A DNA stretch of 64,000 nt from Candidatus Microgenomatus sp. (GCA_020724805.1 DYGI01000001.1:389152-453151); one strand, 5' to 3'. Positions 4,072 to 62,970 are shown, counted from the stretch's first letter. Numbers and translations: made by a program. Notes: generated by a model not told the origin, from the sequence alone.

Positions 4072-4104
4072 ATGAAAAATTATATCATACAGGCACTTCA
4101 CCTC

Positions 4105-4246: not shown

Positions 4247-4252
4247 ACTTTA

Positions 4253-4912
4253 TCACGTCGTTATGGTTCCGAACAGTGATTCTGAAGTCGCGATTTGAGC
4301 GAGAATGCTAGTGTGCAGTTTTTTCACAGCGCTCACTATACGATGATCGCCAACGTATTGTTTAACTTGAGCTCTCACTTTATGGATCAAATCGTTCGCG
4401 ATTCCGAAACGACTCCACATATTCAATTCATCGTCTAGCGTGAGAGTTTCCGGGTTTTTATAAAGATTTGCAATGCACTCATAGTATTCGCGCATAACCG
4501 CTTTAGGTTCACCGTTTGGGGTTTCAATATAGGTGAGTGAATCACGTGCTATTTGCATATCGAAGTTTCTTACGTCCTCGATATCTTGCAGTATCTTTAC
4601 CGCAGTTCTTTTTATCCACATTTCTTCTCCCTGGTCACGCATTCCTTCATCTATACCTGGTATTGTCTCACTGATAGCGCTCGCTTGAACATCATCGTAG
4701 AGAAGATGTGAAAACCATCCCTTGCGAAAATCGCTGGTTCTGAATGAAAGATCTGTTTGGTATCCCTTTGGGTGTGTGGCGAGTCTGTTAATTTTTGTCA
4801 CATATCGGCTATCTGGGTATATTGAGCCGGAAATGTACGCGTCAGCATCTTTGACGGAGAGTAGATCCTTAACATCAAGAGCAAACCTTATATGTGATCC
4901 TTGGAGCGCCAT
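4253..4912 (-). CDS. hypothetical protein (219 aa), island cargo
   Basis: Long ORF in AT-rich DNA; bracketed within 8-9 nt at each end by the direct repeats at 4216-4245 and 4921-4948. No recognisable motif. Confidence 0.5.
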   Translation of the reverse strand: MALQGSHIRFALDVKDLLSVKDADAYISGSIYPDSRYVTKINRLATHPKGYQTDLSFRTSDFRKGWFSHLLYDDVQASAISETIPGIDEGMRDQGEEMWIKRTAVKILQDIEDVRNFDMQIARDSLTYIETPNGEPKAVMREYYECIANLYKNPETLTLDDELNMWSRFGIANDLIHKVRAQVKQYVGDHRIVSAVKKLHTSILAQIATSESLFGTITT

Positions 4913-4920
4913 AAACTTTT

Positions 4921-4948
4921 TGCTGCGGGGCTTAAACGACGTTAGAAC
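4921..4948 (+). repeat. island-boundary element copy 2 (partial, core only)
   Basis: tgctgcggggcttaaacgacgttagaac, about 75% identical to 4216-4245. Its reverse complement ends CCCCGCAGCA, like the tRNA-Gln(CTG) 3' end. Confidence 0.6.
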
Positions 4949-5021
4949 TTATTTCCTTTCGACAAGTACCATTCATTAATAAAAATGGGTTCTACCCAAT
5001 TAGGGACATTGATTCTAATTA

Positions 5022-5528
5022 CTAAAAGACATAAATAACCTTTCCTATAATATCGTCTACCTGTTTAACGCCCAATATCGAATTCTCGTTATCACCTTTT
5101 TGGAACACCTCTCCATCGTTGAGATCAAAGCGTAAGATGGTGTCTGGTTTTATAATGTCCAACTCCGAAGCTGAAGAGTTTGGGAAAAGCGTTTTTTCTC
5201 CATTAACTGTGATAGTTTTATTTTCATCTATCACCACTTGATCGCCGGCGACACCGATAATCCTATGTATCCAGGGATCATAAACTGTTTCCTTCGTTAG
5301 CTTGTTTATAAGTGGCGTACCAAACATTACTATGTCGTTTCGTCTGACATTTGATAATAAGTAATGGATTCTACTTACCATCACGTAGCTTCCCTTATCA
5401 ATGGTTGGTTCCATTGAATCTCCTGCTACGTAGTGTATTGGGAAAAAAATTCTCACAAATAATCCAAGAAGAAAGAGAACCCCAATTACGTAGAAGGTGA
5501 ATCTTTTCCAAGGCTTTTTGGTCTGCAT
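5022..5528 (-). CDS. lepB: signal peptidase I (S26 family)
   Basis: N-terminal TM, catalytic Ser motif GDSMEPT, RIIGVAGD box. Confidence 0.8.
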   Translation of the reverse strand: MQTKKPWKRFTFYVIGVLFLLGLFVRIFFPIHYVAGDSMEPTIDKGSYVMVSRIHYLLSNVRRNDIVMFGTPLINKLTKETVYDPWIHRIIGVAGDQVVIDENKTITVNGEKTLFPNSSASELDIIKPDTILRFDLNDGEVFQKGDNENSILGVKQVDDIIGKVIYVF

Positions 5529-5549
5529 TGCTAGTTCTGCTTTATTTGA

Positions 5550-5819
5550 TTATAGGAAAAAATACGAAACGAAAGCCGAAAAGCTTGCCAGTAAATAACC
5601 AACTCCAGCAATGAAATTGATTGCCCGATTATCTTGGTTGAGAGTATCGAGGTATGCGTTAAAATCATTGATAAATTCTTCAATACCAAGTGGCACACCA
5701 TTAAAGGTTTTTACCCCTCCTTTATTTGAAAAGGGAGCGATTTTTTGAAAACTTCTCCAGAAATGATAAATCGCCAAAGCAAGAAATGAAAATGTAAATA
5801 TTATCCAAATGTACTTCAT
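5550..5819 (-). CDS. small membrane protein (hypothetical)
   Basis: Internal start MKYIWIIF; two TM helices. Confidence 0.4.
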   Translation of the reverse strand: MKYIWIIFTFSFLALAIYHFWRSFQKIAPFSNKGGVKTFNGVPLGIEEFINDFNAYLDTLNQDNRAINFIAGVGYLLASFSAFVSYFFL

Positions 5820-5972
5820 GGCTGGGAGGCTTGGGAGCGAACAACGCTCGTATTCACTCGCGTTCACAAAACCCTCGGTTTTGTGTCCACTATCGTTCAA
5901 TCCGACACGGAAGGGACACAAAAGGTTTCCCTTCCGACCCATCCCTCACTTAAATCGTCAGATTTAAGTCCA

Positions 5973-6002
5973 GATTCATGGCTTCAAAGGCCGCTGTCCT
6001 AT
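5973..6002. repeat. tRNA-Gln fragment (anticodon-arm region) duplicate
   Basis: agattcatggcttcaaaggccgctgtcctat matches tRNA positions 6068-6100 with one mismatch. Confidence 0.7.
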
Positions 6003-6046
6003 AGACAAGGGAGTGAGGAAATGGAAAGCGTCACTCCTGCGCACCG

Positions 6047-6117
6047 CTGGGAGGCTTGGGATCGAACCAAGATTCACGGCTTCAAAGGCCGCTGTCCTAC
6101 CATTAGACGACCTCCCA
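6047..6117 (-). tRNA. tRNA-Gln (anticodon TTG)
   Basis: Cloverleaf: acceptor TGGGAGG/CCTCCCA, D-arm GTCT/GGAC, anticodon loop CTTTGAA, T-arm CTTGG-TTCGATC-CCAAG, discriminator G. U1-A72 is typical of bacterial tRNA-Gln. Confidence 0.85.
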
Positions 6118-7975: not shown

Positions 7976-8069
7976 GTTTTTTGCATCGGCGCACGGATTG
8001 ACGATTTTGCCGCTTTGTTATACGAAATAGGTAGCACCCACCATCAACGTACGAAAGGAGACGTCCATT

Positions 8070-8558
8070 ATGAAAATCGGGGCCGATTTCGAACCTTTTT
8101 TTCGTGAAGAGCAGGTCATGACCCTCACCGTGGACTACGACCAGCCCGTGTCAGAGTATTTTCTGCGCGGCAAGTATGAGGAAACACCCCATTATCCCGA
8201 CGCACGGATTCCCAACACCTACCGTGGTGTGGGCACCGCGGTGAAGCCAATCCTGCTTCTCAAACTCAAGGCGCCCGCGACCACCGAGACGATACTCGCG
8301 GAAATGGAGCGTTTTCGACTCCGGCCGGTCGGCGCGCATGAACTTCTTTCCATCGGCGCCCACGACCCGATAATCCAGGTGAAGAACCAGATCGTCGGAC
8401 TCGGAGCTATCTGGAATGGGAGTTTAGAAGGGCCGTATGCGCTTGCGCTCGCGTTCTATCTGGCGCGACGCCGCGTGGTCTTTACGTGGCCTCACCGCTC
8501 GGTGCGGCACGAATGGCAAACCAACGTGCTCTTTGCGGCGACTCCGCTTGCCGCATAG
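8070..8558 (+). CDS. hypothetical protein
   Basis: 162-aa ORF, no motif recognised. Confidence 0.4.
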   Translation: MKIGADFEPFFREEQVMTLTVDYDQPVSEYFLRGKYEETPHYPDARIPNTYRGVGTAVKPILLLKLKAPATTETILAEMERFRLRPVGAHELLSIGAHDPIIQVKNQIVGLGAIWNGSLEGPYALALAFYLARRRVVFTWPHRSVRHEWQTNVLFAATPLAA

Positions 8559-18378: not shown

Positions 18379-19821
18379 ATGGACAAGGTACGTGTACGAT
18401 TTGCGCCGTCTCCCACGGGCCCTTTTAGCTTAGGAAATGCCCGTACGGCGCTCTATAACTGGCTTTTTGCCCGCCACGAAGGCGGGGAATTCTTCTTGCG
18501 TGTCGAGGACACCGACAAGGAGCGATCTAAAAAGGAGTACGAGGACGACATTCTTGAAGGTCTGAAATGGCTCGGTCTCACCTGGGATAACGCCGAGGTC
18601 ATGCGCCAGAGCGAGCGCGGGAAGATATACGAAGAAGCGCTCACCAAGCTTTTGAATGAAGGGCGCGCGTATTACTGCTTTTGCACACCGGATGAACTCG
18701 AAGCGGAGCGGCAGGCGCAGATGAGCCAGGGAATTCCTCCGAAGTACGGCGGGAAATGTCGCCACTTCACCAAAGAAGAGGCATCCGCGCAATTAGGGAA
18801 GAAATCCGCGGTCATTCGGTTTGCAATGCCGCCGCGCGAATTGGAATTCGAAGATATGATACGAGGCAAGGTGCGCGTGGATACGTCGCTTATCGGAGAT
18901 ATTGTCATTGCGCGGAACCTCCGTGACCCCCTTTATAACTTTTCCGTGGTGGTGGACGACGCCGCAATGGCAATCACGCACGTTATTCGCGGCGAGGACC
19001 ACCTCTCGAACACGCCGAAGCAGATTATGATAGCGGAAGCGCTCGGATTCACTTCGCCGCAGTTTGCACATCTCCCTCTCATCCTTGGTCCCGACAAGAA
19101 AAAACTTTCAAAGCGCAACCTTGAAGGTTCGCTGAACGACTACCGGAAGCAGGGTTATCTTCCCGAAGCGGTGTTGAATTTTTTGGTCCTTCTCGGATGG
19201 CACCCCGTAAAAGACCGCGAGATCCTTTCACGCGACGAGATGGTCGCCGAATTCAATTTGAAGCGCGTGCAGAAAGGCGGCGCGGTGATGAACGAGGAAA
19301 AACTTTCATGGCTCAATCTTCAACATCTGCGCGCGCTCCCGGTGGAAACCGTAATGGAACATCTCTCGCCATTCATTCCCGCGGAATGGAGAAAACGGCC
19401 CGCGTTTCTCCGCCGCGTAGTGGAAGTCGAACGAAATCGGATGAAAACGCTCCAGGAATTCGTCGAACTTGCGGACCCGTTTTTTGAGCTTCCCGAATAT
19501 CCCGCAACGCTTCTTATCTGGAAGGAAACGCCGAAAGAAATTGTGATAAAAAACCTTGAGGACGCCGAAGGCATCATTGCGGCGGCGCCCGAGAAAAAGC
19601 TCGTGGCCGCGGAGCTTGAGTCGCAGCTCTTTGAGATGGCAAATCGCACCGGGCGCGGCGAATTTTTGTGGCCGCTCCGCGTTGCGCTTTCCGGGCGCGA
19701 AGCATCGCCCGGGCCACTCGAACTCATCGAGGTTTTGGGAAAAGAAGAGGCGCTCCGTCGGATACACCACGCGCTCGAACTTCTCACTGGAGGCACCTTG
19801 GCGCCGGAAGTACGTTCGTAA
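18379..19821 (+). CDS. gltX: glutamyl-tRNA synthetase
   Basis: HIGH-type motif PSPTGPFSLGNARTA, KMSKS variant KLSKR, class I catalytic core. Confidence 0.9.
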   Translation: MDKVRVRFAPSPTGPFSLGNARTALYNWLFARHEGGEFFLRVEDTDKERSKKEYEDDILEGLKWLGLTWDNAEVMRQSERGKIYEEALTKLLNEGRAYYCFCTPDELEAERQAQMSQGIPPKYGGKCRHFTKEEASAQLGKKSAVIRFAMPPRELEFEDMIRGKVRVDTSLIGDIVIARNLRDPLYNFSVVVDDAAMAITHVIRGEDHLSNTPKQIMIAEALGFTSPQFAHLPLILGPDKKKLSKRNLEGSLNDYRKQGYLPEAVLNFLVLLGWHPVKDREILSRDEMVAEFNLKRVQKGGAVMNEEKLSWLNLQHLRALPVETVMEHLSPFIPAEWRKRPAFLRRVVEVERNRMKTLQEFVELADPFFELPEYPATLLIWKETPKEIVIKNLEDAEGIIAAAPEKKLVAAELESQLFEMANRTGRGEFLWPLRVALSGREASPGPLELIEVLGKEEALRRIHHALELLTGGTLAPEVRS

Positions 19822-19830
19822 TATATAACC

Positions 19831-21141
19831 ATGCCGCGCATTTTCACATCTTTGGTCGTTATCGCTTTGGTGGCAACCGGAGCGCCACTCGTGGTGGCGC
19901 AAGAAACGCCGATTTCCGGCAGTGCTTCGGTTACCGCGGAAAACAACGAGCTCAAGACAAAGATAAACGAGAAAGCCACCATTCTTGAGGCGATTGAGGC
20001 CCAAAAAGCGGCAATACAGCAGAACCTCGAAGAGGTGGAAGGGTCCGCACGCACGCTTTCACAGGAAGTAAAATCCATTGATACGAACATTCGCCAACTT
20101 GACCTCACCATCCAATCAAATGAGGTGCTTATCGAGAAGCTTGGGCTCGAGCTTGAATTCCTCGGGGACGAAATTCCTCGCATCGAGGACTCAATAAAAA
20201 ATGCGAAACTTACCATTAAAAAACTTTTTGTGGAACTTCAGGAACGCGAGCGGGAGAATTTACTCGTGATGTTCCTTCGCAATCAGAGCCTTTCGGAAAG
20301 CGTCGGCGAACTTCAAACACTCACCGCGCTCAACAATCGCCTCACTATCCAAATAGAGGAGTTCCGTACACTACAGGAAGCGCTCGCAAATCGCATCAAT
20401 GAAACGTCCCGCACAAAGTCGCGTGCGCAGGTGGAAATCACAAATCTCGCAAGCCGCCAAGTGATCGCGGCGGAAGTGAAATCGGAGAAAGAACGGCTTC
20501 TTGAAGCCACGAGAAGCCAGGAGGAGCTCTACTTGCGCCAACTCGAACAATTGAAAGCGCTTCAGGCCGAAATTTCCAAAGAAATCGATGCAATCGAAAC
20601 CGAGCTTCGGCGCACCATCGACAAAAATCTTTTACCGCTCCCGCGCCCAGGCGTGCTTCTGTGGCCGGTGGGCGGCGGACGTCTTACTCAGGAATACGGG
20701 TACACCACGTTCGCGGCGCGCAATTACGGGAGTAAGTTCCATAACGGCGCGGACATTGGTGCGCCAATCGGGACCGAAGTGTACGCTTCGGAAAAGGGAA
20801 TCGTAATCAATGTGGGAAACCAGGACGCGTATCGCGGCTGCTATCGTGCGGGATATGGAAGGTTCATTGTGGTAAAACACGAGAACGGCCTAACCACCCT
20901 CTACGCGCACCTTTCGAGGCAGATAGTGAAGGTGGGCGATGAGGTGGAACGCGGAGAGGTCATCGGATATGTGGGGCGTACGGGATGGGCCACGGGACCT
21001 CACCTCCATTTCACGGTCTTCGCCACGCAGACCATCACGCCAGCGCGCGGAAACCTCCCGGAGGGCACGGTGCAATCACGTTCCTGCGGTCCGATGCCGG
21101 TCGGCGGTGATATGAATCCGTTGCAATATTTGGATGTTTGA
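19831..21141 (+). CDS. M23 peptidase with N-terminal coiled-coil (EnvC-like)
   Basis: Signal peptide and long coiled-coil. C-terminal HxxxD (GADIGAP) and HLHF motifs. Confidence 0.8.
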   Translation: MPRIFTSLVVIALVATGAPLVVAQETPISGSASVTAENNELKTKINEKATILEAIEAQKAAIQQNLEEVEGSARTLSQEVKSIDTNIRQLDLTIQSNEVLIEKLGLELEFLGDEIPRIEDSIKNAKLTIKKLFVELQERERENLLVMFLRNQSLSESVGELQTLTALNNRLTIQIEEFRTLQEALANRINETSRTKSRAQVEITNLASRQVIAAEVKSEKERLLEATRSQEELYLRQLEQLKALQAEISKEIDAIETELRRTIDKNLLPLPRPGVLLWPVGGGRLTQEYGYTTFAARNYGSKFHNGADIGAPIGTEVYASEKGIVINVGNQDAYRGCYRAGYGRFIVVKHENGLTTLYAHLSRQIVKVGDEVERGEVIGYVGRTGWATGPHLHFTVFATQTITPARGNLPEGTVQSRSCGPMPVGGDMNPLQYLDV

Positions 21142-31982: not shown

Positions 31983-32066
31983 GCGCGGGTGGTGGAACTG
32001 GCAGACACACTACCTTGAGGTGGTAGCGCCCGCAAGGGCTTGGAGGTTCGAATCCTCTCCCGCGCA
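31983..32066 (+). tRNA. tRNA-Leu (anticodon GAG)
   Basis: Acceptor GCGCGGG/CCCGCGC, anticodon loop TTGAGGT, long variable arm, T-arm GGAGG-TTCGAAT-CCTCT, discriminator A. Confidence 0.85.
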
Positions 32067-32099
32067 CAGATGAAATATTCAATACCCTCGTGGTATTGG

Positions 32100-32232
32100 A
32101 TATTTTATTTTGGTGCGAGGATTCGAACAGGGAAGGGGTCGGGAAACCGTAGAAGAGAGGTTTCCCGTGCCGGAAGTACTGAAACCGAAGGGTTTCAGGG
32201 AGCGAGTGGATGAGAGCGACGTTCGATTCCCT
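32100..32232. repeat. tRNA 3'-end-derived fragments (recombination scar)
   Basis: 32100-32121 is the reverse complement of a T-loop plus acceptor 3' end (ccctgttcgaatcctcgcacca). 32205-32232 (gttcgattccctctcccgcgcacca) repeats the tRNA-Leu 3' end including CCA. Two 8-bp hairpins lie between. Neither fragment has a matching 5' acceptor or D-arm. Confidence 0.55.
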
Positions 32233-32263
32233 CTCCCGCGCACCATTTCGTTATAATGTGCCT

Positions 32264-48984: not shown

Positions 48985-49053
48985 GTTCGTTCAATCGTAT
49001 CACACCGCTTCGAAAGTTGAAAAAACCTCGCGCTTGAGGCACATTAAGCGTAT

Positions 49054-49124
49054 TGCGGGATCGTCTAATGGTAGGACGTCTGGCTCTGAACCAGAAAATT
49101 GGGGTTCGATTCCCTGTCCCGCAG
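49054..49124 (+). tRNA. tRNA-Gln (anticodon CTG)
   Basis: Acceptor TGCGGGA/TCCCGCA, D-arm GTCT/GGAC, anticodon loop CTCTGAA, T-loop TTCGATT, discriminator G. Confidence 0.8.
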
Positions 49125-49261
49125 CATTAGGACTAAATAGTCCTAAAATACCCACCGGAGAGGTGGGGTTCGCGTTTTAGTACGACTCCGTGTACGTTTT
49201 TTCCCTTTTCGGCATTCCTACCCCCGTTATATTCTCCTCTCGGCACTCTTAGAGTCTGAAG

Positions 49262-49477
49262 GTGAACAGGTTCCCGTACCAAATCACCAATACGCTTAGA
49301 GAACATAGGAAGGCTGTAGGATTGAGTCAGCAGAAGGTGGCGGCTGCCTTGGGGATACAGGACAACACTCTTATTTCTCGATGGGAGCGGGGCGCAGCTC
49401 TCCCCTCTCTCGTGAGCGTATACCGACTCATGGAGCTCTATAGGGCTACGTTTGAGGAGTTGTTTCCGAAGGTCTAG
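49262..49477 (+). CDS. XRE-family helix-turn-helix transcriptional regulator
   Basis: LSQQKVAAALGIQDNTLISRWERG is a classic Cro/C1 HTH. Confidence 0.75.
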   Translation: MNRFPYQITNTLREHRKAVGLSQQKVAAALGIQDNTLISRWERGAALPSLVSVYRLMELYRATFEELFPKV

Positions 49478-49593
49478 TAAAGCGATGATTTTACGATTTC
49501 TTGAACAAAACCACTAGTTGCAAAAATGCTTGATAACCCTTATCTTTTTCTAAATCCTAAAGCACAATTTGCTATAGTTAGAAATGAAATCTG

Positions 49594-50280
49594 ATGACGG
49601 AAAAAATCTTCGTTCAAAGATTAAAAAAGATTTTTAAGCAGGACGGATACCTCGTTAGAGAGGAAATCGGTGTGGGGCACGGTATAGCAGATTTAGTTTT
49701 AATTAGGGGCAGCAGGATCAACCAACGACACGTCGAGCTAAGAAAAAGCTATCGCCAGTTGTCTCCTCTGCTTAAGGAAGAGTATTTCCGCACGCTAAAT
49801 GTAATACCCGATCAGCCAGGGAAAGCATCGCTAGATCTAATTGTAAAAAAAACCCACTTATCCAAGCCTTATCTGAAATACTCCATCCTTAGAACGCTTG
49901 AGAAAAAGGGATATATCAAGTCGAACGGAGAGAACCATTATTTTAAGATTAACGGTTGGGTTCCACTAACAAGCGAACTAATTGCAGTGGAAGCAAAACT
50001 AAAGGACTGGAAAAGAGGACTCATCCAAGCGAATCGATATAAGATCTTTGCAAACAAAGTTTATTTGGCAATTCCTTCCTCTCATGCTCACCTCGTGGAC
50101 AGAAAGATGTTGAGAAAACATGGAATCGGACTAATCACATTAGATATAGTGAGCGGGAAGAAAAATATCCCACTCCGTGCAAGTCATAATATACCCGCGA
50201 ATTTACCTCGCAGTAACTTTGCAGTTGAACATTTCTGGGGAAAACAGATCTACAAACGAGCAGAGGCGCGGCCAATCTAG
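49594..50280 (+). CDS. hypothetical protein, possible PD-(D/E)xK-fold nuclease with central wHTH
   Basis: GHGIADLVLI ... IAVEAKLKDW fits a D...ExK arrangement; weak. Confidence 0.35.
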   Translation: MTEKIFVQRLKKIFKQDGYLVREEIGVGHGIADLVLIRGSRINQRHVELRKSYRQLSPLLKEEYFRTLNVIPDQPGKASLDLIVKKTHLSKPYLKYSILRTLEKKGYIKSNGENHYFKINGWVPLTSELIAVEAKLKDWKRGLIQANRYKIFANKVYLAIPSSHAHLVDRKMLRKHGIGLITLDIVSGKKNIPLRASHNIPANLPRSNFAVEHFWGKQIYKRAEARPI

Positions 50281-50714
50281 GATATTTTCGAAAACGCTTG
50301 AGTAAACTTTTCGGGAGATATTGTGCGCACGTCTCCAAACCTTCCTATATCAAGTAAATCTCTATCGCGGGTGATGATAATTTTTGCGGCGCAAGTCCTC
50401 GCAACTCTTACGTATTCATCATCGTCAGGGTCCCTCTGAATGTAGCGTGCTAACTTCTCAGTGGAATTCGGCTCTACCATATTTACGAATGCTCTATAGT
50501 CCAAGATAATTTTTTCAGGACTAAATATTTGCCTTTTCAGATATTTCTGAAGCCTACCAATCTGAATTTTTTCGCAGAACTCTTGGTAGGTCGCCGAACT
50601 GCCGAATATTAATATTCTTTTTTCTAGCGCCCAATTAATAATTCTTCTTGTTGGGCCAGGCGTCCCCAACATACCCGAAATGAGAATGTTCGTATCCGGC
50701 ACTACCTTGATCAT
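50277..50714 (-). CDS. PIN-domain nuclease (TIGR00305-like toxin family)
   Basis: N-terminal VVPDTNILISGML and conserved acidic residues (..ARTCAAKIIITRDRDLL). Start overlaps the stop of the TGT-like gene by 4 nt. Confidence 0.7.
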   Translation of the reverse strand: MIKVVPDTNILISGMLGTPGPTRRIINWALEKRILIFGSSATYQEFCEKIQIGRLQKYLKRQIFSPEKIILDYRAFVNMVEPNSTEKLARYIQRDPDDDEYVRVARTCAAKIIITRDRDLLDIGRFGDVRTISPEKFTQAFSKIS

Positions 50715-51880
50715 GAGTCAAGCTCGGATAGTAACGTTTTCAGTTCGTCATCATCACCAGGAAACTCCCATGTCTTTGCCAAATCTAGAACAGCCTTCCA
50801 ACGAGGAAGGTAGGCTGTCTTTACCCCAATGGCGCGAGACCGCAACTTCGAAGTTAACTGAATAGCATCATCGACCCGCTTAGACAGGACACTTATCCGT
50901 TTCTCTTTCGTTAAATTTTGAAGAGATTGAACACTTGATAATCTCGTGTGAAGAAAGTGTAGCTTTTTAGCCGCCACTTCTTTGGGGTATGACCCACCAC
51001 ACGCCGGACAATTACAGGAGTATTTTATCTTCTTCAGATCTTGATCGTTGAGATAATCAAAAATCTCCGGCACGTATGTTTTTTCGATTCGCTTACTCCA
51101 TCCCTTAGGCGTACTTTGAAGATTCTTCACGACGAACATTTCTCCCGCTGCCAGACCGCTTCCAAAGCCGCTTGCACCTACTGCACAAAGAACCTCACCA
51201 AATGGACCGATTTTATTGGCAAAGACCACACTCCCCTCCGAGAGACGGAATGCTAAGCGGGCAAATTCTAAGAGTGAGTCTTGGTCGGCACTTTCACAAT
51301 CTAGATCATTTATCACAACTATATAACCGTCTAACGAGTCACGAAAATCCTCTTTATACCTATCAATGATGTAATTGATGACCGTGGGTCGATTAAGAAT
51401 AGAGCTTCCCAATTTCAGCATCGCAAAAACCGGAATTTCTTGTTTTGTCTCCTGAAGATAGCGCAACGTTTCTGACAGCATGGAAATATTAACACCAAAT
51501 TTTAGGTCGTCGGTATCTTCACAAAAAAAATAAGGAGCTATCATTACTGATGCCTGTTTACGGAACTGGTCTTGTACGGCAATCTGAACAATCTTCTCCT
51601 TACGAAAACCGGGGTCACTGTAAACTTTTTCCGCGTTAACTTCATTTGGATATCCCAGTCTTTTAAAATTCTCCCCTTCACTCGCATCCTTGAATAGCAG
51701 GATGTCTGTCGAGGGGTCTATGATAAATACGTCTGATATCGCCCTTAATTTCTCAGCGACTTTTGGACGCCACTCCGAATGTCTTGTATCCATAAGCACG
51801 GCAGGAAAGCGGAATCCTAGTGATTCCAAGTGTCCGTCCTGTGCATTCGGCAAAAAGATTGGTGTTTTCGGTATCAACAT
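50711..51880 (-). CDS. tRNA-guanine-transglycosylase (TGT) superfamily-like zinc-binding protein (DpdA/TGT-like); catalytic Asp possibly missing
   Basis: N-terminal KTPIFLPN resembles TGT ETPCFMPVGT. LDGYIVVINDL resembles FDGYAVGGLAVGE. C-terminal CNCPAC-(13 aa)-HFLH resembles the TGT zinc site CDCYTC...YLHHL. The GIDMFDCV nucleophile region aligns to GEMFVVKN. Confidence 0.45.
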   Translation of the reverse strand: MLIPKTPIFLPNAQDGHLESLGFRFPAVLMDTRHSEWRPKVAEKLRAISDVFIIDPSTDILLFKDASEGENFKRLGYPNEVNAEKVYSDPGFRKEKIVQIAVQDQFRKQASVMIAPYFFCEDTDDLKFGVNISMLSETLRYLQETKQEIPVFAMLKLGSSILNRPTVINYIIDRYKEDFRDSLDGYIVVINDLDCESADQDSLLEFARLAFRLSEGSVVFANKIGPFGEVLCAVGASGFGSGLAAGEMFVVKNLQSTPKGWSKRIEKTYVPEIFDYLNDQDLKKIKYSCNCPACGGSYPKEVAAKKLHFLHTRLSSVQSLQNLTKEKRISVLSKRVDDAIQLTSKLRSRAIGVKTAYLPRWKAVLDLAKTWEFPGDDDELKTLLSELDS

Positions 51881-52005
51881 TCTTCGTTCTTTCTATTAGA
51901 GAAGATTGTCGGTACAAAATATACAATAAAATTCCTTGCTTGGAAAGCGTTATGTATCGCCGCTATTTAGAACACCCCCTCGGTAGGGGGTGTTCTGTCT
52001 GGCGC

Positions 52006-52275
52006 TTAGGTATCTTTGCTGATCGCCTGTATGGTTTCGGCTGCTGGGCCTAAAGCGTTTACTATCTCTATTTTTTCCTTTCCATAATGATCCCTCAAGC
52101 CCTTTAAGAGTTCGTCAGCATAAGAAGGCGTTAGGACCTCTACGCCAGAAAAGTCTAAAACAATATTCTCCTTGTCCGCTGAGCCGTTGATAATCTGTCG
52201 CAGACGCAAAAGCGCCTCCCTACCGGTAGGTCTACCATTCAGCACAGTTCCAAATTTTTGCATCATTACCGTCAT
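52006..52275 (-). CDS. STAS-domain protein (anti-sigma-factor-antagonist-like, DUF4325-type)
   Basis: ...ENIVLDFSGVEVLTPSYADELL... is the typical STAS beta-alpha core; 89 aa. Confidence 0.55.
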   Translation of the reverse strand: MTVMMQKFGTVLNGRPTGREALLRLRQIINGSADKENIVLDFSGVEVLTPSYADELLKGLRDHYGKEKIEIVNALGPAAETIQAISKDT

Positions 52276-52281
52276 ATGATT

Positions 52282-53124
52282 TCACTTGTATTCTATCACA
52301 ACTGACGCCAGCGTCCCTAAGATACGATTCACTACGGATGACTTTTGCCCTTGTTCATCCACGACTACTAATCCCTCCCCAGAATGCACTCTGACTTTAC
52401 CATTAAACTTGTTAATTGTCCAGTCCTGAACGAGCCTCAACCCATTGCCGCGTTTCTCCCCCACTCTTCCCGTTACACCTGTTAGTCCAAGCTGTATCGC
52501 ATCGACATCGTTAGCTAGATTAGGATCACGAACCTTTAAGGAACCGAGGAAGCCAATCCCCGGGTCTGCAATGGCAATCTCAATGAACTTCTTCTCAGGA
52601 TAATTCTGTGCGACCATGATCGCCCCGCCAACATTCGTTGGCCACACTCCTTCATTGTGATCAAAAACATTGTTTCCGAGCTCACCGATAAGCGAGGTAA
52701 CCCGTTGTTCATCTTCCCCACGCAGGCCGAAGTTCCTGAGCATTAAGCGGATATTAGAAGAAAGACGCGCATTGAATTCATCCCTGTAGGTGCAGTGGAG
52801 TATCTCGTGTAGGTTTAGGTTCGGATGCTCGACCATTGGAAGAGAGTTCAATGGCGCAAGAAACGCACCGTATCCCATTGCGTCCATAAACTGAGGGAAG
52901 TGAATTCTCTTCAAATACGTCAAGACATCGTGGTGCTTAGGCAATACGAGTTCTTTCTTTGGTTGATCTTTTAGCTCAATCGCCCTTAAACAAATCATGC
53001 CAACGCCCCAGGGCTCGCACCACCCCGCTTTACTCAAATCAATAACATCCCCGTTAAACCATCCAGCATCCCGGCTGTAAATCTCACCAAATCCAAGTCT
53101 CATGATGGCTAAAGTATAAGCCAT
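52282..53124 (-). CDS. GHKL-family ATPase (RsbW/SpoIIAB-like kinase fold) with N-terminal extension
   Basis: N-box ELGNNVFDHN, G1 DPGIGF, G2 GLTGVTGRVGEKRGNGL. Pairs with the adjacent STAS gene. Confidence 0.55.
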   Translation of the reverse strand: MAYTLAIMRLGFGEIYSRDAGWFNGDVIDLSKAGWCEPWGVGMICLRAIELKDQPKKELVLPKHHDVLTYLKRIHFPQFMDAMGYGAFLAPLNSLPMVEHPNLNLHEILHCTYRDEFNARLSSNIRLMLRNFGLRGEDEQRVTSLIGELGNNVFDHNEGVWPTNVGGAIMVAQNYPEKKFIEIAIADPGIGFLGSLKVRDPNLANDVDAIQLGLTGVTGRVGEKRGNGLRLVQDWTINKFNGKVRVHSGEGLVVVDEQGQKSSVVNRILGTLASVVIEYK

Positions 53125-53259
53125 CTGAAACCGCTGCGTAAATGAACGGCATGGCTAGAACTTGTCTAATCCGGCAACTTCTCCCTCCTTGCCGTCCCCT
53201 TCCGCTCCCCTATACTGGACGCGTAGTCAATTGAGGAATATCTTCCTCGGCATACAAAA

Positions 53260-53400
53260 GGTTCGAACATCGTTCAGGCCCCGCAGCCCTTCTTCGCTTC
53301 GCTCATCAGGGCCTATGGCATCTCTTGAGCGAAGAAGGCACTGAGGAATCCTGAGTATGAACGAAGGACGACGAAGTGATAAAATTCGCTTGTGAGTCAC
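53260..53400 (-). repeat. island-boundary element copy 3 (tRNA-Gln 3'-end-like core 53260-53292 plus conserved hairpins)
   Basis: GGTTCGAACATCGTTCAGGCCCCGCAGCCC then ccttcttcgc...gaagaagg hairpin. About 93% identical over 64 nt to the reverse complement of 4190-4246. Confidence 0.7.
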
Positions 53401-53640
53401 TTCGTTTATATTCTCACATGTGCCGATGGTTCACTGTACGTGGGATGTACCAATAACCTTGAACGTAGAATAAAGCAACACAACGATTCTAAGTGGGGCG
53501 CACACTATACAAAACTAAGACGCCCCGTAGCACTTGTGCACCAAGAAGAATTTCCAACCTTACGTGAGGCGCGACGACGAGAAACTGAAATCAAAGGTTG
53601 GCGCCATGAGAAGAAACTAACACTCATTAATAAGACCTAA
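53392..53640 (+). CDS. GIY-YIG nuclease domain protein
   Basis: FVYILTC...SLYVGCTNNLERRIKQH; GTG start; low GC. Confidence 0.7.
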   Translation: MSHFVYILTCADGSLYVGCTNNLERRIKQHNDSKWGAHYTKLRRPVALVHQEEFPTLREARRRETEIKGWRHEKKLTLINKT

Positions 53641-53685: not shown

Positions 53686-54645
53686 ATGTTTATCGACGAC
53701 GTTACCATAAGGGTTTTCGCTGGAAATGGCGGGAAGGGCGCAGTTGCGTTCAATAAAAACCTCATGTCCTTGGGCCCCGCGGGCGGGAGCGGCGGCAAGG
53801 GAGGCAGTGTGTATGCCGAGGGCGTTTCCAACCTGAGCGCCCTTCAGCAATTCAGATACGAAAAATCCATCCAGGCGGAGCACGGCATGGACGGTCGCGG
53901 CCAATTTAAGGATGGCCACGATGGAAAAGACCTTACGCTCAAAGTTCCGGTGGGCACTATTATTCACAACCTCACGAACGGACACGATGTGGAAATTACG
54001 AAGATAGGCGAACGCGTGCTTCTCGCGAAAGGTGGCAATGGAGGCAAAGGGAATTTTCACTTCCGCTCGCCGAAGCTCACCACGCCAAAACGTTTCCAAC
54101 CGGGACTTCCGGGAGAAACGTTCCAATTCCGGCTTGAGCTGAAACTTACCGCGGACATCGGGTTCGTAGGACTTCCTAATGTTGGGAAATCCAGTTTACT
54201 GAACGTCCTCACGAACGCCAAAAGCAAGGTGGCGAACTATCCCTTTACCACACTTGAACCAAACCTCGGCGCGTACTACGAACTCATTCTCGCTGATATC
54301 CCGGGCTTGATTGAGGGCTCGTCGCGCGGCAAGGGGCTCGGCATCAAATTCCTCCGCCACATTGAGCGGACGCGCATTCTTTTTCACTTCATTTCGGCAG
54401 AATCCCCTTCTCCGAAAAAAGATTACGACACCATCCGTAAAGAGCTGGGGAATCACAATAAAAAACTTCTGGAGAAACCGGAATATCTTTTCCTCACGAA
54501 AAGCGATGAAGCGTCGCCCGCGGAATTAAAAAAGAAGCTCGCGGTGTTAAAGAAGATTAATCGCGCCACTATGGCGATTTCGCTCTATGACGACGAGAGC
54601 ATACATGCGGTCAAAAAACTCCTCAACAAAATAAAGAGCGAATGA
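53686..54645 (+). CDS. obg: GTPase Obg
   Basis: Gly-rich Obg fold (GGKGGSV, GGNGGKGN) then G domain GLPNVGKSSLL, DIPGLIEG. Confidence 0.9.
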   Translation: MFIDDVTIRVFAGNGGKGAVAFNKNLMSLGPAGGSGGKGGSVYAEGVSNLSALQQFRYEKSIQAEHGMDGRGQFKDGHDGKDLTLKVPVGTIIHNLTNGHDVEITKIGERVLLAKGGNGGKGNFHFRSPKLTTPKRFQPGLPGETFQFRLELKLTADIGFVGLPNVGKSSLLNVLTNAKSKVANYPFTTLEPNLGAYYELILADIPGLIEGSSRGKGLGIKFLRHIERTRILFHFISAESPSPKKDYDTIRKELGNHNKKLLEKPEYLFLTKSDEASPAELKKKLAVLKKINRATMAISLYDDESIHAVKKLLNKIKSE

Positions 54646-55229
54646 GCTATCGCACTCATCTCCTCCGCGCGGACAAGGTGATGGCACGCCTAGTGAGGCG
54701 CTATTCCCTCAAAGCCATTGCGCCCGCAAAGAATCCACTTGAAGAGCTCGTGGGGTCCATCATATCCCAGCAACTTTCGGTGAAAGCGGTCGAGACCATC
54801 GCCGCACGTTTTTTTGCGCTTTACGACGGCCGCATGCCTTCGGCGGAACGCATCGTGCGGACTCCCATTCCACGAATGAGGACATGTGGGATTTCAAATG
54901 CAAAAGTGCGGTATATCAAAAACGTTGCCCGCGCTTTCATCGCGGGACGTCTGAACCGGGCGCACCTCATGCGTATGAGCGACGCGGAAGTTCACCACCA
55001 CCTCATCGCCATAAAAGGTGTGGGGCCGTGGACCGTGGAAATGTTCCTTATATTCGCGCTCGGGCGCCCCGACATATTTTCTCCTGGGGATGTAGGACTT
55101 CAAAACGCGATTCGCGTCCACTACGGCAAAAAACCGACGCCCACGTTCATGAAAAAACTTTCCGCGCGTTGGGCCCCATACCGGAGCTACGCCTGCCGCT
55201 ACCTCTGGAAATCCTTGGATAACGAATAA
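54642..55229 (+). CDS. HhH-GPD base-excision DNA glycosylase (AlkA/OGG-like)
   Basis: Helix-hairpin-helix LIAIKGVGPWTVEMF followed by a catalytic Asp (PGDVGLQ). Confidence 0.75.
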   Translation: MSYRTHLLRADKVMARLVRRYSLKAIAPAKNPLEELVGSIISQQLSVKAVETIAARFFALYDGRMPSAERIVRTPIPRMRTCGISNAKVRYIKNVARAFIAGRLNRAHLMRMSDAEVHHHLIAIKGVGPWTVEMFLIFALGRPDIFSPGDVGLQNAIRVHYGKKPTPTFMKKLSARWAPYRSYACRYLWKSLDNE

Positions 55230-55239
55230 AACTGTTCGC

Positions 55240-56487
55240 TTATCTGAACTTTCTGCGCGGAGAAAACCGGCGCGGACCACCGAAGTGCGGTGGACGCGGT
55301 CCTCGCGGAGCAAAACGCGAAGGGCGACGCGGTGGATGTGAAGATTCTTCTATTACCGGTGCGCCGCGATGCGGCGGGAGTGCAGGCAATTTGGAAAGCG
55401 GGAGTGCTTGGCGTATGAGCCTCTCGATACCGCGCACATCCCCACGCTGATCCGGAGTGGCGAATGAAATAGCGTGCCCTTTGCCGCCCGCACGCGCTGT
55501 GCGCCCGATGCGATGTACATAATCTTCCGCGGTGCTCGGGAGATCATAATTTACCACTACCTCGATTCCCTTCACATCGATGCCGCGCGCCGCAATGTCG
55601 GTCGCGATAAGCACACGATACTTCCCGTTTTTGAACCCATCCAGTGCCTCGCGGCGTTGTGAAAGCGAACGGTTCGCATGGAGTTCGGCGGCCGGATGAC
55701 CCATAGCGCGCACCGAAGCAGCTATTTTTTTCGCTCCAAATTTCGTCCGTGAAAACACCAGCACAGAACCTCGATATTCTCCGAGCACTTTTTCCAAAAG
55801 CCGCGGTTTGTCGGGACGCGCCACGACAAAAAGTTCCTGGGTTACTTTCGCTGCGGTAGTTCCCGGCGGTGCGATTTCCACACTGAGCGGCAATTTCATG
55901 CTCGTCCGCGCGATATTCACGATATCCTGCGGCATGGTGGCGGAGAAAAGCATGGTTTGGCGCTCTTTCGGCACTGCGGCGAGAATTCGGTTCAGTTGCG
56001 GTGCAAAACCCATATCCAACATCCGGTCCGCTTCGTCGAGCACAAGCATTCCCACCGCCGAGAGCGATACGGTTTTTTGGGTAAGGTGGTCAATGATGCG
56101 CCCCGGGGTCCCTATGACAATCATGGGGTCTCGTCGCAATGCGCTTATCTGCCTGCCGACGGACTCTCCTCCGATGAGAAGTACGGTTCGTATGCGAAGC
56201 GCGCCACCGATTTTTTCCAACGTATCTTGAACTTGGAGCGCAAGTTCGCGCGTGGGAAGCACCACAAGCCCTCGGGTTCCCCGCAGCGCCGCTTGTATCA
56301 TCGGGATGCCGAACGCGAGCGTCTTCCCCGTTCCTGTTTGCGCGATGCCGATAAGATCCTTCCCTTCCAATGCGGGAGGAATGGATTTCTGCTGTATCGG
56401 CGTCGGCGTCTTAAAATTCAGGCGATCAATGGTTGCAAGAATGTTCGGCGCGATACCAAGGCCATAAAAACCGGATTGAGGTTCCAT
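55240..56487 (-). CDS. DEAD-box ATP-dependent RNA helicase
   Basis: Q motif, AQTGTGKT, PTRELA, DEAD, SAT, HRIGRTAR; Arg-rich C-terminal tail. Confidence 0.9.
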   Translation of the reverse strand: MEPQSGFYGLGIAPNILATIDRLNFKTPTPIQQKSIPPALEGKDLIGIAQTGTGKTLAFGIPMIQAALRGTRGLVVLPTRELALQVQDTLEKIGGALRIRTVLLIGGESVGRQISALRRDPMIVIGTPGRIIDHLTQKTVSLSAVGMLVLDEADRMLDMGFAPQLNRILAAVPKERQTMLFSATMPQDIVNIARTSMKLPLSVEIAPPGTTAAKVTQELFVVARPDKPRLLEKVLGEYRGSVLVFSRTKFGAKKIAASVRAMGHPAAELHANRSLSQRREALDGFKNGKYRVLIATDIAARGIDVKGIEVVVNYDLPSTAEDYVHRIGRTARAGGKGHAISFATPDQRGDVRGIERLIRQALPLSKLPALPPHRGAPVIEESSHPPRRPSRFAPRGPRPPHFGGPRRFSPRRKFR

Positions 56488-56494
56488 GCCTTTA

Positions 56495-58315
56495 TTATGC
56501 GCTTTCCTTTTCCTCCTTTTTCGCTTTTTTGCGGTCGTTCTCGCTTAAATAGATTTTCCGGATGCGGATGCTTTTCGGCGTGATTTCCACCATCTCATCA
56601 TCGCCGATGTAGGCAAGCGCATCTTCAAGTGAGAGCGTGAGAGGCACATCGAGCGATTCGGCAACTCCTTCATTTTTGGAGCGGAAGTTTGTGAGCTCCT
56701 TCGCTTTGCATACGTTCACCACCACGTCTCCCGACTTCGCGTTTTGCCCCACTACCATGCCTTCATAGACCGGCACGCCGGGACCGATGAAGAGTTTACC
56801 CCGTCCTTGGGCTGTAATAAGACCGAAGCTGTTTGAAGTGCCCGTTTCGGTGGCTACGATGGACCCGCGCGACTCGGCACGTATCTCGCCTTTATATTCC
56901 TCGTACCCAAGGAAAATGCTGTTCATGATGCCAAGCCCTTTCGTATTGGTGAGAAATTCACCCCGCGAACCGATAAGACCGCGCGTGGGGATTACAAAAT
57001 CCATATAAGTATTCCCCCCGTCCACTTTCATGTCCTTCATCACACCCGAGCGCTTCCCCATCATTTCAATGACGGTGCCGGCATACTGTTCTGGCACTTC
57101 CACCGATACAAGCTCCATCGGTTCTTTTTTCTTGCCATCAATTTCCTTGAAGATGACTTGGGGCTTCGAAACCTCGAGCTCGAATCCTTCCCGTCGCATT
57201 TTCTCGACGAGGATTGCGAGGTGAAGTTCGCCGCGCCCGGCTACAATCCAGCGGTCCGCGGACGCGGTCGGCGCCACCATGAGCGCCACGTCCGTTTCGA
57301 GTTCGCGTTCAAGCCGCTCTTTTAGGTTGCGCGAAGTGGTGTATTCCCCTTCCTTCCCTTTGAACGGGGATGTATTCACGCCGAACGTCATTTTAACCGT
57401 CGGCTCGTCGATATGAATGACGGGGAGCGCCACCGGATTTTCCGGATCGGCAATGGTCTCTCCTATAGAAATGTCGGGGATGCCCGCAATCGCCACAATG
57501 TCGCCCGCGTACGCCTCTTCCACATCTACCCTATTCAATCCCTCAAAAAGCATAACGCCGGTAACGGTGCCACGCGCCGATTCTCCCGCACGATTGATGT
57601 GGGTGATTGCCATTCCTTTTTTGAGCGTACCCGCGTAGACCCGCCCCACCGCAAGTTTTCCTTTGTAGTTGTCGTAGGCAAGGTTCACGGTGAGCATTTG
57701 GAGCGGCTCATGCGGGCGCGCTTCCGGCGCGGGAATATATTTCACAATAGCGTCGAAGACCGGCGTAATATCCTTCATCTCAGGAAGTTCATGCGTAAGC
57801 CCCGCCTTTCCCATCGTTGCGGACGCGTAAAGCACTGGGAATTCTATCTGCGCCTCCGTGGCGCCAAGCTCGAAGAAAAGGTCGTACGTGGCGTTCAACA
57901 CCCACGCGGGGCGCGCTGCCGGCTTGTCAATCTTATTGATAACCACGATGACCTTGTGCCCCGCCTCAATGGCTTTCCGCAGCACGAATTTCGTCTGCGG
58001 CATCGGCCCTTCTTTCGCATCCACAAGCAAAAGCACGCCGTCCACCATGCGCATGATGCGCTCCACCTCGCCGCCAAAATCAGCATGACCCGGTGTATCC
58101 ACGATATTTATCTTTATGTCGCCGTGCCGAATGGAAGCATTTTTGGAAAAAATGGTGATACCGCGCTCCCGTTCGAGCTCGTTCGAGTCCATAATAAGTT
58201 CCTGCGCCGCATCGGCTTTAAGCCGAAAGCGGTCGGATTGCTTTAAAAGCGCGTCCACCAAGGTGGTCTTCCCATGGTCAACGTGCGCGATGATTGCGAT
58301 ATTTCTCAGTTCCAT
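56495..58315 (-). CDS. typA: translational GTPase TypA/BipA
   Basis: AHVDHGKTTL, DTPGHADF, NKID, and a BipA-specific C-terminal domain. Confidence 0.9.
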   Translation of the reverse strand: MELRNIAIIAHVDHGKTTLVDALLKQSDRFRLKADAAQELIMDSNELERERGITIFSKNASIRHGDIKINIVDTPGHADFGGEVERIMRMVDGVLLLVDAKEGPMPQTKFVLRKAIEAGHKVIVVINKIDKPAARPAWVLNATYDLFFELGATEAQIEFPVLYASATMGKAGLTHELPEMKDITPVFDAIVKYIPAPEARPHEPLQMLTVNLAYDNYKGKLAVGRVYAGTLKKGMAITHINRAGESARGTVTGVMLFEGLNRVDVEEAYAGDIVAIAGIPDISIGETIADPENPVALPVIHIDEPTVKMTFGVNTSPFKGKEGEYTTSRNLKERLERELETDVALMVAPTASADRWIVAGRGELHLAILVEKMRREGFELEVSKPQVIFKEIDGKKKEPMELVSVEVPEQYAGTVIEMMGKRSGVMKDMKVDGGNTYMDFVIPTRGLIGSRGEFLTNTKGLGIMNSIFLGYEEYKGEIRAESRGSIVATETGTSNSFGLITAQGRGKLFIGPGVPVYEGMVVGQNAKSGDVVVNVCKAKELTNFRSKNEGVAESLDVPLTLSLEDALAYIGDDEMVEITPKSIRIRKIYLSENDRKKAKKEEKESA

Positions 58316-62596: not shown

Positions 62597-62620
62597 CGCC
62601 CCGATTTGCATCGGGGCGGG
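62597..62620 (-). terminator. hairpin 3' of RNase P RNA
   Basis: ccgccccgat ttgc atcggggcgg perfect 10-bp stem. Confidence 0.5.
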
Positions 62621-62970
62621 AGAAGTATGACATAAGCCGGGTTCTGTCTACGCGACAATTCATCTGGGACCGCGATTGCTCGCGGACTCGAGCGGCACTT
62701 CCTCCGGTTTCCCTCGGGACACGGCCTTGCACTCGGGTAAGGATTTAGCCGTTTCATCTCCGCGTTTCTATCCCTATCGCGGATATGGACCTTTTGGCCT
62801 GGGATCAGGTCCTCCTTCGCCTTTCGACTCGGGACGTTTCTGCTCGCACCTCTATCCTCACGGACGACGGGTGTTACCCGCTACCTTGCTCCTCCATTGC
62901 TGAAGGGAGTGCCCGGACTTTCCTCACTCACGACTTAACGTCGGAGCGCTGTCGCTTGTCATACTTCTAC
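62620..62970 (-). ncRNA. rnpB: RNase P RNA (bacterial rnpB)
   Basis: On the minus strand the P4 strands read GAGGAAAGTCCGGGCACTCCC and ACAGAACCCGGCTTA. P1 pairs GAAGTATGACA with TGTCATACTTC at the two ends. Confidence 0.85.

Follow-up and report, generated by a model that had tools for sequence, protein, structure and literature searches.

A low-GC islet without a recombinase gene at tRNA-Gln(CTG) of a Patescibacteria genome, and its tRNA-derived border repeat

A low-GC block in the 64-kb window analysed here (the whole stretch DYGI01000001.1:389152-453151, one strand, with coordinates counted from its first letter) separates a tRNA-Gln(CTG) gene from obg in the genome of a Patescibacteria (candidate phyla radiation) bacterium. 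Its foreign composition, its absence from relatives and the empty sites found in them identify this block, island B, as a foreign insertion at the tRNA gene. The island encodes no recombinase, and sequence comparison traces the head of the repeat at its distal border, REP B, to a tRNA-Gln 3' end. We consider it moderately probable that the locus was shaped by serial insertion into the T-loop of the tRNA gene by a recombinase that has been lost or acts in trans, in which case island B would be the cargo, with a defence or toxin-antitoxin function, and REP B an attR-type scar. The window belongs to a metagenome contig of 570,864 bp (JGI 3300029893, Ga0246236_1000004). The closest species-level genome found is L004, a metagenome-assembled genome of Candidatus Brennerbacteria with an Obg protein 92% identical to that of the window.

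Island B, a foreign insertion at tRNA-Gln(CTG)

Counting the GIY-YIG gene, there are seven open reading frames (ORFs) in the low-GC region, and the locus comprises the following features (aa, amino acids; HTH, helix-turn-helix; GC3, GC content at third codon positions; TGT, tRNA-guanine transglycosylase).

49054-49124 (+): tRNA-Gln(CTG), proximal (attL-side) border (ARAGORN; Rfam tRNA, 62.2 bits)
49127-49167 (+): two small terminator-like hairpins behind the tRNA, TTAGGAC..GTCCTAA and CCCACC..GGTGGG, the latter followed by a T-run (sequence, terminator scan)
49262-49477 (+): XRE-type HTH regulator, 71 aa (Pfam HTH_31/HTH_3; GC3 0.64)
49594-50280 (+): p228, 228 aa, putative PD-(D/E)xK-type nuclease core with an inserted winged helix, third gene of a cassette, convergent with the PIN gene (invariant residues, AlphaFold2 model)
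50277-50714 (-): PIN_3 family nuclease, predicted toxin-type, 145 aa (Pfam PIN_3, 2e-10; NCBIfam TIGR00305, 9e-19)
50711-51880 (-): p389, 389 aa, predicted TGT-like fold with a CxCxxC..H motif (AlphaFold2, Foldseek, family alignment)
52006-52275 (-): STAS-like DUF4325 protein, 89 aa (Pfam)
52282-53124 (-): p280, HATPase_c_2-like protein, 280 aa (conserved pairing with DUF4325)
53259-53365 (+): REP B, putative attR-type border on the distal side of island B; resemblance to REP A and to the L004 homologue (both below) extends to ~53385
53392-53640 (+): GIY-YIG protein, 82 aa, outside island B (Pfam; conservation as a neighbour)

ARAGORN and Rfam agree on the position of tRNA-Gln(CTG), as given in an earlier sequence-only reading of this DNA; its gene does not encode CCA. 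The low-GC block starts right behind the tRNA 3' end (49124), with windowed GC at 0.40-0.46 over ~49400-52400 and 0.47-0.51 up to 53400, and recovers in obg. The lowest 4-kb windows of the 64 kb start at 49001-49501, where GC is 0.44 against a mean of 0.527 (standard deviation 0.027), bearing out the sharp drop behind the tRNA and the recovery at obg that had been noticed earlier. Codon usage, which had been proposed as a check, gives the same result for five genes, GC3 being 0.42-0.51 in p228, the PIN gene, p389, the STAS-like gene and p280 versus 0.58-0.64 in fmt, obg and the HhH gene, but not for the HTH gene next to the tRNA. The GIY-YIG gene is itself low in GC (GC3 0.39).

Around obg, the genomes of 80 related species contain no gene for any of the six island B proteins; the same genes at the same locus in relatives, with native GC, had been named beforehand as a finding that would speak against an insertion. 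In L022 the order is fmt-tRNA-Gln(CTG)-obg, with a gap of just 289 nt between tRNA and obg. In L041, tRNA-Gln(CTG) is followed by ~200 nt of non-coding DNA, GIY-YIG and obg, with a copy of the tRNA 3' end (17/18) just upstream of GIY; this locus matches that of island B on its downstream (GIY-obg) side, and no fmt homologue was found upstream of its tRNA-Gln(CTG). Because relatives have empty sites, we regard island B as an insertion, and the sequence-only reading was right to place it at tRNA-Gln. Its further suggestion of a composite island that includes GIY-YIG does not hold: in L041 the gene immediately precedes obg, and short GIY-YIG genes standing alone (~80 aa) are repeatedly found beside tRNA-Gln or obg in relatives (L019, L030, L035 and L041), which may reflect either mere synteny or a functional tie to the hotspot. 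Gene order thus assigns GIY-YIG to the neighbourhood rather than to island B.

The tRNA-Gln-to-obg interval of relatives ranges from 70 nt to 8 kb and has unrelated contents, among them genes for GNAT, HAD, GDSL lipase, cation efflux, HD, RNase T and Schlafen/AlbA_2 proteins. Since both its length and its genes vary in this way, the interval qualifies as a hotspot.

As the sequence-only reading had also stated, the element contains no tyrosine or serine recombinase: no recombinase was found among the seven ORFs in Pfam, NCBIfam or PADLOC, and the Pfam domains listed for the 10 kb to each side of obg include no recombinase. A tblastn search with one tyrosine-recombinase fragment and one serine recombinase, a weak test, gave no match in the window.

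REP, a tRNA-end remnant joined to a hairpin

The sequence-only reading had taken 53260-53292 for a degenerate, attR-like copy of the tRNA-Gln(CTG) 3' end. The tRNA end and positions 53260-53287 share two blocks only, GGTTCGA and CCCGCAGC, which are 13 nt apart in the repeat and 8 nt apart in the tRNA, and a direct-repeat search does not list this repeat among the ungapped direct repeats. Formal alignment, which that reading had itself called for, does not separate the pair from chance: the Smith-Waterman score of the tRNA 3' end against the region is 20, versus 19.2 +/- 1.9 for shuffled sequences. The two-block pattern, on the other hand, occurs three times in the window versus 0.003 expected, and its third site, at 4218-4245 (-), revealed a longer repeat, REP. 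What stood of the attR-like repeat is a tRNA-Gln remnant in the orientation of the tRNA; it is not a copy of the adjacent tRNA's own end but part of a unit of 110-140 nt, composed of a tRNA-end remnant and a hairpin. In REP B, positions 53259-53287 are a decayed remnant of tRNA-Gln from T-loop to acceptor, AGGTTCGAACATCGTTCAGGCCCCGCAGC, with the conserved hairpin region next to it. There are two further copies.

4135-4248 (-): REP A, inverted relative to REP B, distal border of islet A (below), directly upstream of the native gene p112 (85.4% over 96 nt)
4920-4948 (-): rep3, truncated third copy of the tRNA-end motif, AGTTCTAACGTCGTTTAAGCCCCGCAGC, between a signal-peptidase gene and p219 (nhmmer E 0.004)

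REP A and REP B are 85.4% identical over 96 nt, inverted and 49 kb apart. The 29-nt head, AGGTTCGAACATCGTTCAG[G/C]CCCCGCAGC, occurs exactly twice in the window versus zero expected.

These statistics bear on one alternative, that the region is a native, fast-evolving AT-rich segment with a chance repeat. The non-significant alignment between the tRNA end and 53260-53292 fits such a segment, whereas the strongly non-random motif counts, the empty sites in relatives, the absence of the island genes at 80 related loci and the occurrence of their best homologues in another phylum do not, and we regard this explanation as effectively refuted.

The ancestry of REP is clearest in L004. There, a partial tRNA-Gln copy, GGGGTTCGATCCCCTGCCCCCCAGCA, which spans the anticodon arm, the T-arm and the acceptor end, lies 44 nt behind tRNA-Gln(TTG) and runs straight into a homologue of the REP hairpin (nhmmer E 8e-10). 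Because this homologue directly follows a true partial tRNA-Gln copy, REP is read as a displaced tRNA-Gln 3' end plus a hairpin, and the tRNA derivation of its head is demonstrated at the level of sequence comparison. The T-loop part of REP, GGTTC-GAACATCG-TTCA, and that of rep3, GTTC-TAACGTCG-TTTA, match GGTTCTAACGTCGTTCA in an unrelated metagenome contig, L092, in which GGTTCTAACGTCGTTCA forms the right end of a one-gene cargo between two units of an element called E1 (see below), downstream of tRNA-Asp. Since it matches the junction motif of a cargo border, this part of REP is not a product of random decay. Two viral matches to the 17-mer GGTTCTAACGTCGTTCA were judged to be due to chance; they sit in apparently ordinary coding sequence. 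The REP motif itself gave no match in viral contigs and none in metagenome contigs, a collection that apparently does not include the source sample, and no described repeat corresponding to REP was found in the literature searched, the coverage of which was limited.

We also considered whether REP might be a functional structured RNA, either a regulatory leader or a REPIN-like mobile hairpin, whose T-loop-like start and position at a border are incidental. REP folds as a long hairpin (z-scores from -2.6 to -6.5 depending on copy and strand) with stems conserved between the host and the L004 species, each of the three copies precedes a co-oriented gene (GIY, p112 or p219), and a promoter-like site (53189-53216) immediately precedes REP B. 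The genes behind the three copies are unrelated to one another, however, and REP has no Rfam match, a search of the window at gathering thresholds and of REP at E<=10 returning only tRNAs, RNase P and noise. The homologue in L004 is fused to an unmistakable partial tRNA-Gln copy, the two-block pattern is shared with tRNA-Gln(CTG) at three sites against 0.003 expected, and the copies, just 2.5 in 64 kb, are all downstream of tRNA-Gln genes in tRNA orientation. We therefore think an independent functional RNA or a REPIN-like hairpin improbable. REP/REPIN repeats differ further in having many dispersed copies and a RAYT transposase, no RAYT-like gene being seen in the 64 kb covered. The RNase P RNA found in the same Rfam search (class A, bacterial, 62618-62967 (-), 120 bits) adjoins tRNA-Thr(CGT) and is an ordinary feature.

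REP A and rep3 belong to a second low-GC block, islet A (4000-6045, GC 0.39-0.43), which lies immediately downstream of tRNA-Gln(TTG) (6117->6046). Its genes encode a membrane protein, signal peptidase I and a 219-aa protein (p219), and they are separated by tRNA-end remnants (an E1 distal copy, rep3 and REP A) in a cassette-like manner. REP A and rep3 share the orientation of tRNA-Gln(TTG); by position and orientation, therefore, islets A and B follow the same plan of tRNA-Gln, foreign genes, REP and native genes, and islet A was probably built by the same process as island B.

REP copies also mark changes in gene order. L004 is collinear with the window over 53686-58315 (obg to typA) and then continues at window position 4053->1, so that its obg-typA segment lies between tRNA-Gln(TTG)-REP, upstream of obg, and p112. 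The synteny breakpoints relative to L004 coincide in the window with REP B (before GIY-obg) and REP A (before p112). The genes that precede obg differ among relatives, some of which have dnaX-tRNA-Gln(TTG) there and others fmt-tRNA-Gln(CTG). From these arrangements we infer, short of proof, that recombination downstream of both tRNA-Gln genes has repeatedly swapped their flanks, and rearrangement between the two loci mediated by REP is probable because the REP copies are inverted and stand at the breakpoints.

E1 elements and the origin of the islets

E1 is a structured element with a conserved core of ~125 nt, two covarying hairpins and invariant loops, found at more than 35 loci. Thirty metagenome loci were recovered with a degenerate pattern and more with a covariance model; copies occur in the window, in L041, in L089-L118 and also in L013, L080, L008, L051 and L024. 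The window holds two.

5821-5962 (-): E1 core together with a distal copy of the tRNA-Gln(TTG) 3' end that closes with CCA (83.9 bits, covariance model)
32114-32242 (+): second E1 copy, behind tRNA-Leu(GAG) (69.5 bits, covariance model)

An E1 locus begins with a functional target end. This is either the 3' end of a tRNA or transfer-messenger RNA (tmRNA) gene, in most cases accompanied by a terminator, or a protein-gene end. Next come a 12-16 nt reverse complement of the target and the core, consisting of GGGGTCGG, a variable hairpin, CCGTGTAGGAA, a hairpin with the invariant loop AACCGAGGGTT, and GGAGCGAGT..ACGAGCGACG. A second copy of the target end, often altered (with a modified T-loop), completes the unit. 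In islet A, a partial tRNA-Gln(TTG) copy lies behind the functional tRNA (6046-6117), and its T-arm is split by E1. At 32114-32242 the order is tRNA-Leu(GAG) (31983-32067), terminator, reverse complement of the T-arm, E1 core and a tRNA-Leu 3'-end copy with CCA. In L041 the E1 core (4878-5000) has tRNA-Gln(CTG) on one side and, on the other, the tRNA-end copy that precedes GIY.

RNAalifold predicts two hairpins in E1, with compensatory changes in 11 of 22 pairs. The 5' segment pairs much better with the 3' flank of its own copy than with the flanks of other copies (duplex energy -19.0 versus -11.3 kcal/mol, Mann-Whitney p = 8e-10). Targets include genes for tRNA-Trp, Gly, Val, Leu, Ala, Lys, Glu, Tyr, Ser, Asp and Gln, tmRNA and non-tRNA sites, and the target duplication around E1 spans 15-55 nt. 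Mobility of E1 is indicated by two different tRNA-Gly genes of one contig that hold the same insert (L090 and L100). In L092 (5791-7125), two tandem E1 units lie downstream of tRNA-Asp with one 225-aa cargo gene between them, and behind each unit comes a copy of the tRNA-Asp 3' end whose T-loop is altered in the same way, GGTTCTACATCCCC; no other locus displays serial accretion with cargo as clearly in its layout. Divergent copies in L008 (~19800-20140), L051 (~8040-8400) and L024 (~2560-2900) adjoin the 5' end of a GTPase gene, which is encoded on the other strand, and repeat the first ~13 codons of that gene, an indication that E1 provides genes with replacement 5' ends as well.

No protein family recurs within 5 kb of E1 (31 loci), E1 has no Rfam match at E<=10, and its patterns gave no match in viral contigs. 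No description of E1 was found in the literature searched, with limited coverage and novelty accordingly unproven. The idea that E1 is a group I intron was rejected, there being no Intron_gpI match and the upstream tRNA being intact with its own terminator; published tRNA introns of Patescibacteria, unlike E1, sit in the anticodon loop (PMC13011429), a further reason for the rejection. A primer-binding site of retroviral type was likewise rejected for the 5' segment, which complements the T-arm and not the 3'-terminal 18 nt.

Of 80 functional tRNA genes in E1 loci, 14 encode CCA; in the window, none of 4 does. By sequence reading, approximately 7 of 17 distal tRNA copies carry CCA where the functional copy does not, with no reverse case (window 5817-5842 (-) and 32220-32243 (+); L096, L099, L100 and L105). 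This excess could hint at an RNA-templated step, or the distal copies could be older host gene ends.

The plan seen at island B, in which a tRNA or tmRNA 3' end with terminator is followed by an insert and a second 3'-end copy, recurs at more than 30 other loci. It would be accounted for by site-specific insertion into the T-loop of the tRNA gene, where each incoming element would supply a replacement tRNA 3' end with a hairpin or terminator and the earlier 3' end with its hairpin would be pushed downstream, to decay there. Island B (cargo ~49126-53258) would accordingly be a horizontally acquired islet without an integrase, inserted in a hotspot at the tRNA-Gln(CTG) 3' end; REP B would be a displaced tRNA-Gln 3' end with its hairpin, and hence an attR-type scar; and the recombinase would reside outside the island, either lost or acting in trans.

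Several observations weigh against serial T-loop insertion. No element of this plan carries a recombinase in cis at any locus examined, and the recombinase is for this reason hypothetical. Island B has no intact attL/attR pair with an identical core, the alignment of the tRNA end with the repeat remains at the level of shuffled sequences, and the tRNA ancestry of REP B rests on one relative (L004) together with recurrence of the motif. The sole candidate for a left junction in the spacer, 49154-49172, which a repeat search found to resemble the tRNA stretch 49090-49108 (15/19), does not rise above the level of chance repeats and coincides in part with a terminator-like hairpin; the notion that it is a left half-site, with island B inside a second partial tRNA copy, was downgraded on these grounds. 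The HTH gene adjacent to the tRNA is native-like in GC3 (0.64), and because of this composition the left part of island B may be older or of another origin. All three metagenome contigs with this exact obg also carry island B, so that at the population level there is no sign of excision, nor of an empty site in this species. Finally, PADLOC assigns none of the island cargo to a known defence system.

Some of these points would be met equally by homologous replacement at the hotspot, whereby the islet arrived on DNA of related Patescibacteria and was exchanged by a RecA-type swap between conserved flanks, the scar being an older relic. The flanks (tRNA-Gln on one side and REP, GIY and obg on the other) are a conserved core across the lineage with variable content between them, neither a recombinase nor a clean att core is present, the module of p280 and the STAS-like protein is typical of Patescibacteria, and the HTH gene is native in GC. 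Against a donor of this kind, the nearest homologues of p389 and p228 (67-69% identity) are found in Ignavibacteriales, that is, in a different phylum, GC3 is ~0.15-0.2 below that of the host, and the serial tRNA-end remnants (rep3, REP A, REP B and the E1 distal copies) point to repeated T-loop events. We therefore judge homologous replacement, although it is the main rival, to be the less likely course, at perhaps one chance in a few.

A more speculative extension of serial T-loop insertion, which we put forward as a tentative possibility, would make islets A and B cargo-bearing relatives of E1. E1 units would then be protein-less mini-elements (~150-250 nt) with a core that serves as an RNA or single-stranded DNA guide cofactor for a recombinase encoded elsewhere; in Patescibacteria they would insert into the T-loops of tRNA and tmRNA genes and into some protein-gene ends, supplying a replacement end and a terminator, and the 12-16 nt segment would be complementary to the element's own insertion site. 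An RNA-templated step might even lie behind the frequent encoded CCA of the displaced tRNA ends.

Cargo modules and comparison with known systems

The cargo of island B looks, from gene content and neighbourhoods, like two portable modules of defence or toxin-antitoxin type rather than the backbone of an element. In the first, the XRE-type HTH gene and the p228 nuclease gene are convergent with the genes of the TGT-fold protein and the PIN nuclease; the second pairs the HATPase-like and STAS-like proteins. The p389 family is rare (28 clusters), its best homologue (69% identity) being encoded by an Ignavibacteriales genome. The AlphaFold model of p389 has a mean confidence (pLDDT) of 88.8, and the top 22 matches of a Foldseek search against the PDB are all TGTs (E 4e-7 to 2e-4, TM 0.47-0.57), although no sequence-level match to TGT was found in Pfam, NCBIfam or PDB sequences. 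The CxCxxC..H motif is kept across an alignment of the family. On the strength of the model, p389 is a predicted TGT-fold protein. In p228, an alignment of homologues shows E24, D33 and E133-x-K135 to be invariant, with a winged helix in the centre, and the AlphaFold2 model (pLDDT 94.6) has weak fold matches to XisH, a cap-snatching endonuclease and a MarR-type protein; we read p228 as a putative PD-(D/E)xK nuclease with an inserted winged HTH.

A p389-like gene, an overlapping PIN_3 gene and a convergent gene for a ~227-aa protein co-occur in three other contexts (L084, L085 and L087): in an Ignavibacteriales genome beside BilD/JAB/BilB-like genes and an S24 peptidase gene, in a Paceibacterota genome, and between a type I restriction-modification (RM) system and type IV secretion system genes of a conjugative element. 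At the level of phyla, the cassette has at least three such contexts. A tblastn search with p389 against plasmid and phage collections gave no match. The cassette of TGT-fold, PIN and PD-(D/E)xK proteins is a candidate for a new defence or toxin-antitoxin system; no description of a TGT-like and PIN cassette was found in the literature searched, with the same limited coverage and the novelty likewise unproven.

The genes for p280 and DUF4325 form a conserved pair (273-280 aa and 84-89 aa) that is widespread in Patescibacteria (144 clusters; for example L119 and L121), with p280 homologues labelled in some sources as 'anti-sigma regulatory factor (Ser/Thr kinase)' or HATPase_c_2. On one contig the pair stands beside SocA_Panacea, NYN nucleases and a type ISP RM enzyme. 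PADLOC gave only weak partial matches, of the HTH protein to RmrA/control proteins and of p280 to DrmA at 1e-3, and a defence-type function is suggested by association, in that homologous cassettes adjoin Bil-like genes, type I RM, type IV secretion, type ISP RM, SocA_Panacea and NYN genes.

The 7-deazaguanine DNA modification system, Dpd, contains a TGT paralogue, DpdA. Island B resembles defence islands and Dpd in that it joins a TGT-fold protein with two nucleases and that homologous cassettes lie beside type I RM and Bil-like genes. It differs in having no system recognised by PADLOC, no Pfam TGT match and no preQ0 or queuosine synthesis genes nearby.

Genomes of Patescibacteria measure ~0.6-1 Mb and contain few recognisable mobile elements, and how genes are acquired in this group is poorly understood. 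The present locus suggests that tRNA 3' ends are recurrent landing pads in this lineage, at which small defence-type cassettes gather without a recombinase in cis, and that displaced tRNA ends persist as repeats at the breakpoints of rearrangements. Islands in tRNA and tmRNA genes of the tyrosine-integrase type reportedly use crossover sublocations in the T-loop or the anticodon loop. Island B is like such islands in its insertion at the 3' part of a tRNA gene, displaced 3'-end copy, foreign composition, variable cargo and tandem accretion, and tmRNA is a target here too, for E1 units. It is unlike them with respect to the lack of an integrase in cis at any of more than 35 loci examined, to the heavily decayed distal copy with its hairpin-forming T-loop insertion of 8-10 nt, and to a scar that is part of a longer repeat common to two tRNA-Gln loci. 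An integron cassette array differs as well, there being no integrase here and no RYYYAAC/GTTRRRY cores in REP by sequence reading.

CIMEs (cis-mobilizable elements) are att-flanked, integrase-less derivatives of integrative and conjugative elements (ICEs) or integrative and mobilizable elements, and were described for ICESt1/ICESt3 of Streptococcus thermophilus. Island B shares with them integrase-less DNA between attL-like and attR-like sites at a conserved locus, which could in principle be mobilised in trans, as the sequence-only reading had proposed, whereas no cognate integrase or parent ICE is known for it and its att cores are not intact. We conclude that island B is a variant of a well-known kind, an integrase-less, CIME-like islet linked to a tRNA gene; it is unusual in its association with E1, in its specific junction motif in the T-loop and in the inverted REP scars that two tRNA-Gln loci have in common.

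E1 itself is apparently undescribed and fits none of the described classes with which it was compared. Guide-bearing non-coding RNAs of mobile elements include the bridge or seek RNAs of IS110/IS1111 and the omega RNAs or reRNAs of IS200/IS605. E1 alone, rather than island B, resembles these in combining a structured scaffold with a variable 12-16 nt segment that matches the target, at the ends of an element. In contrast to them, E1 has no DEDD recombinase, TnpB, IscB or other recurrent protein within 5 kb, its target is duplicated over 15-55 nt and its complementary segment pairs with the adjacent flank; to our knowledge, bridge/seek and omega-RNA elements do not duplicate their targets over such a length. 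E1 provides a testable handle on the mechanism of insertion, and were it to prove a guide-type cofactor, it would represent a new kind of programmable site-specific insertion system.

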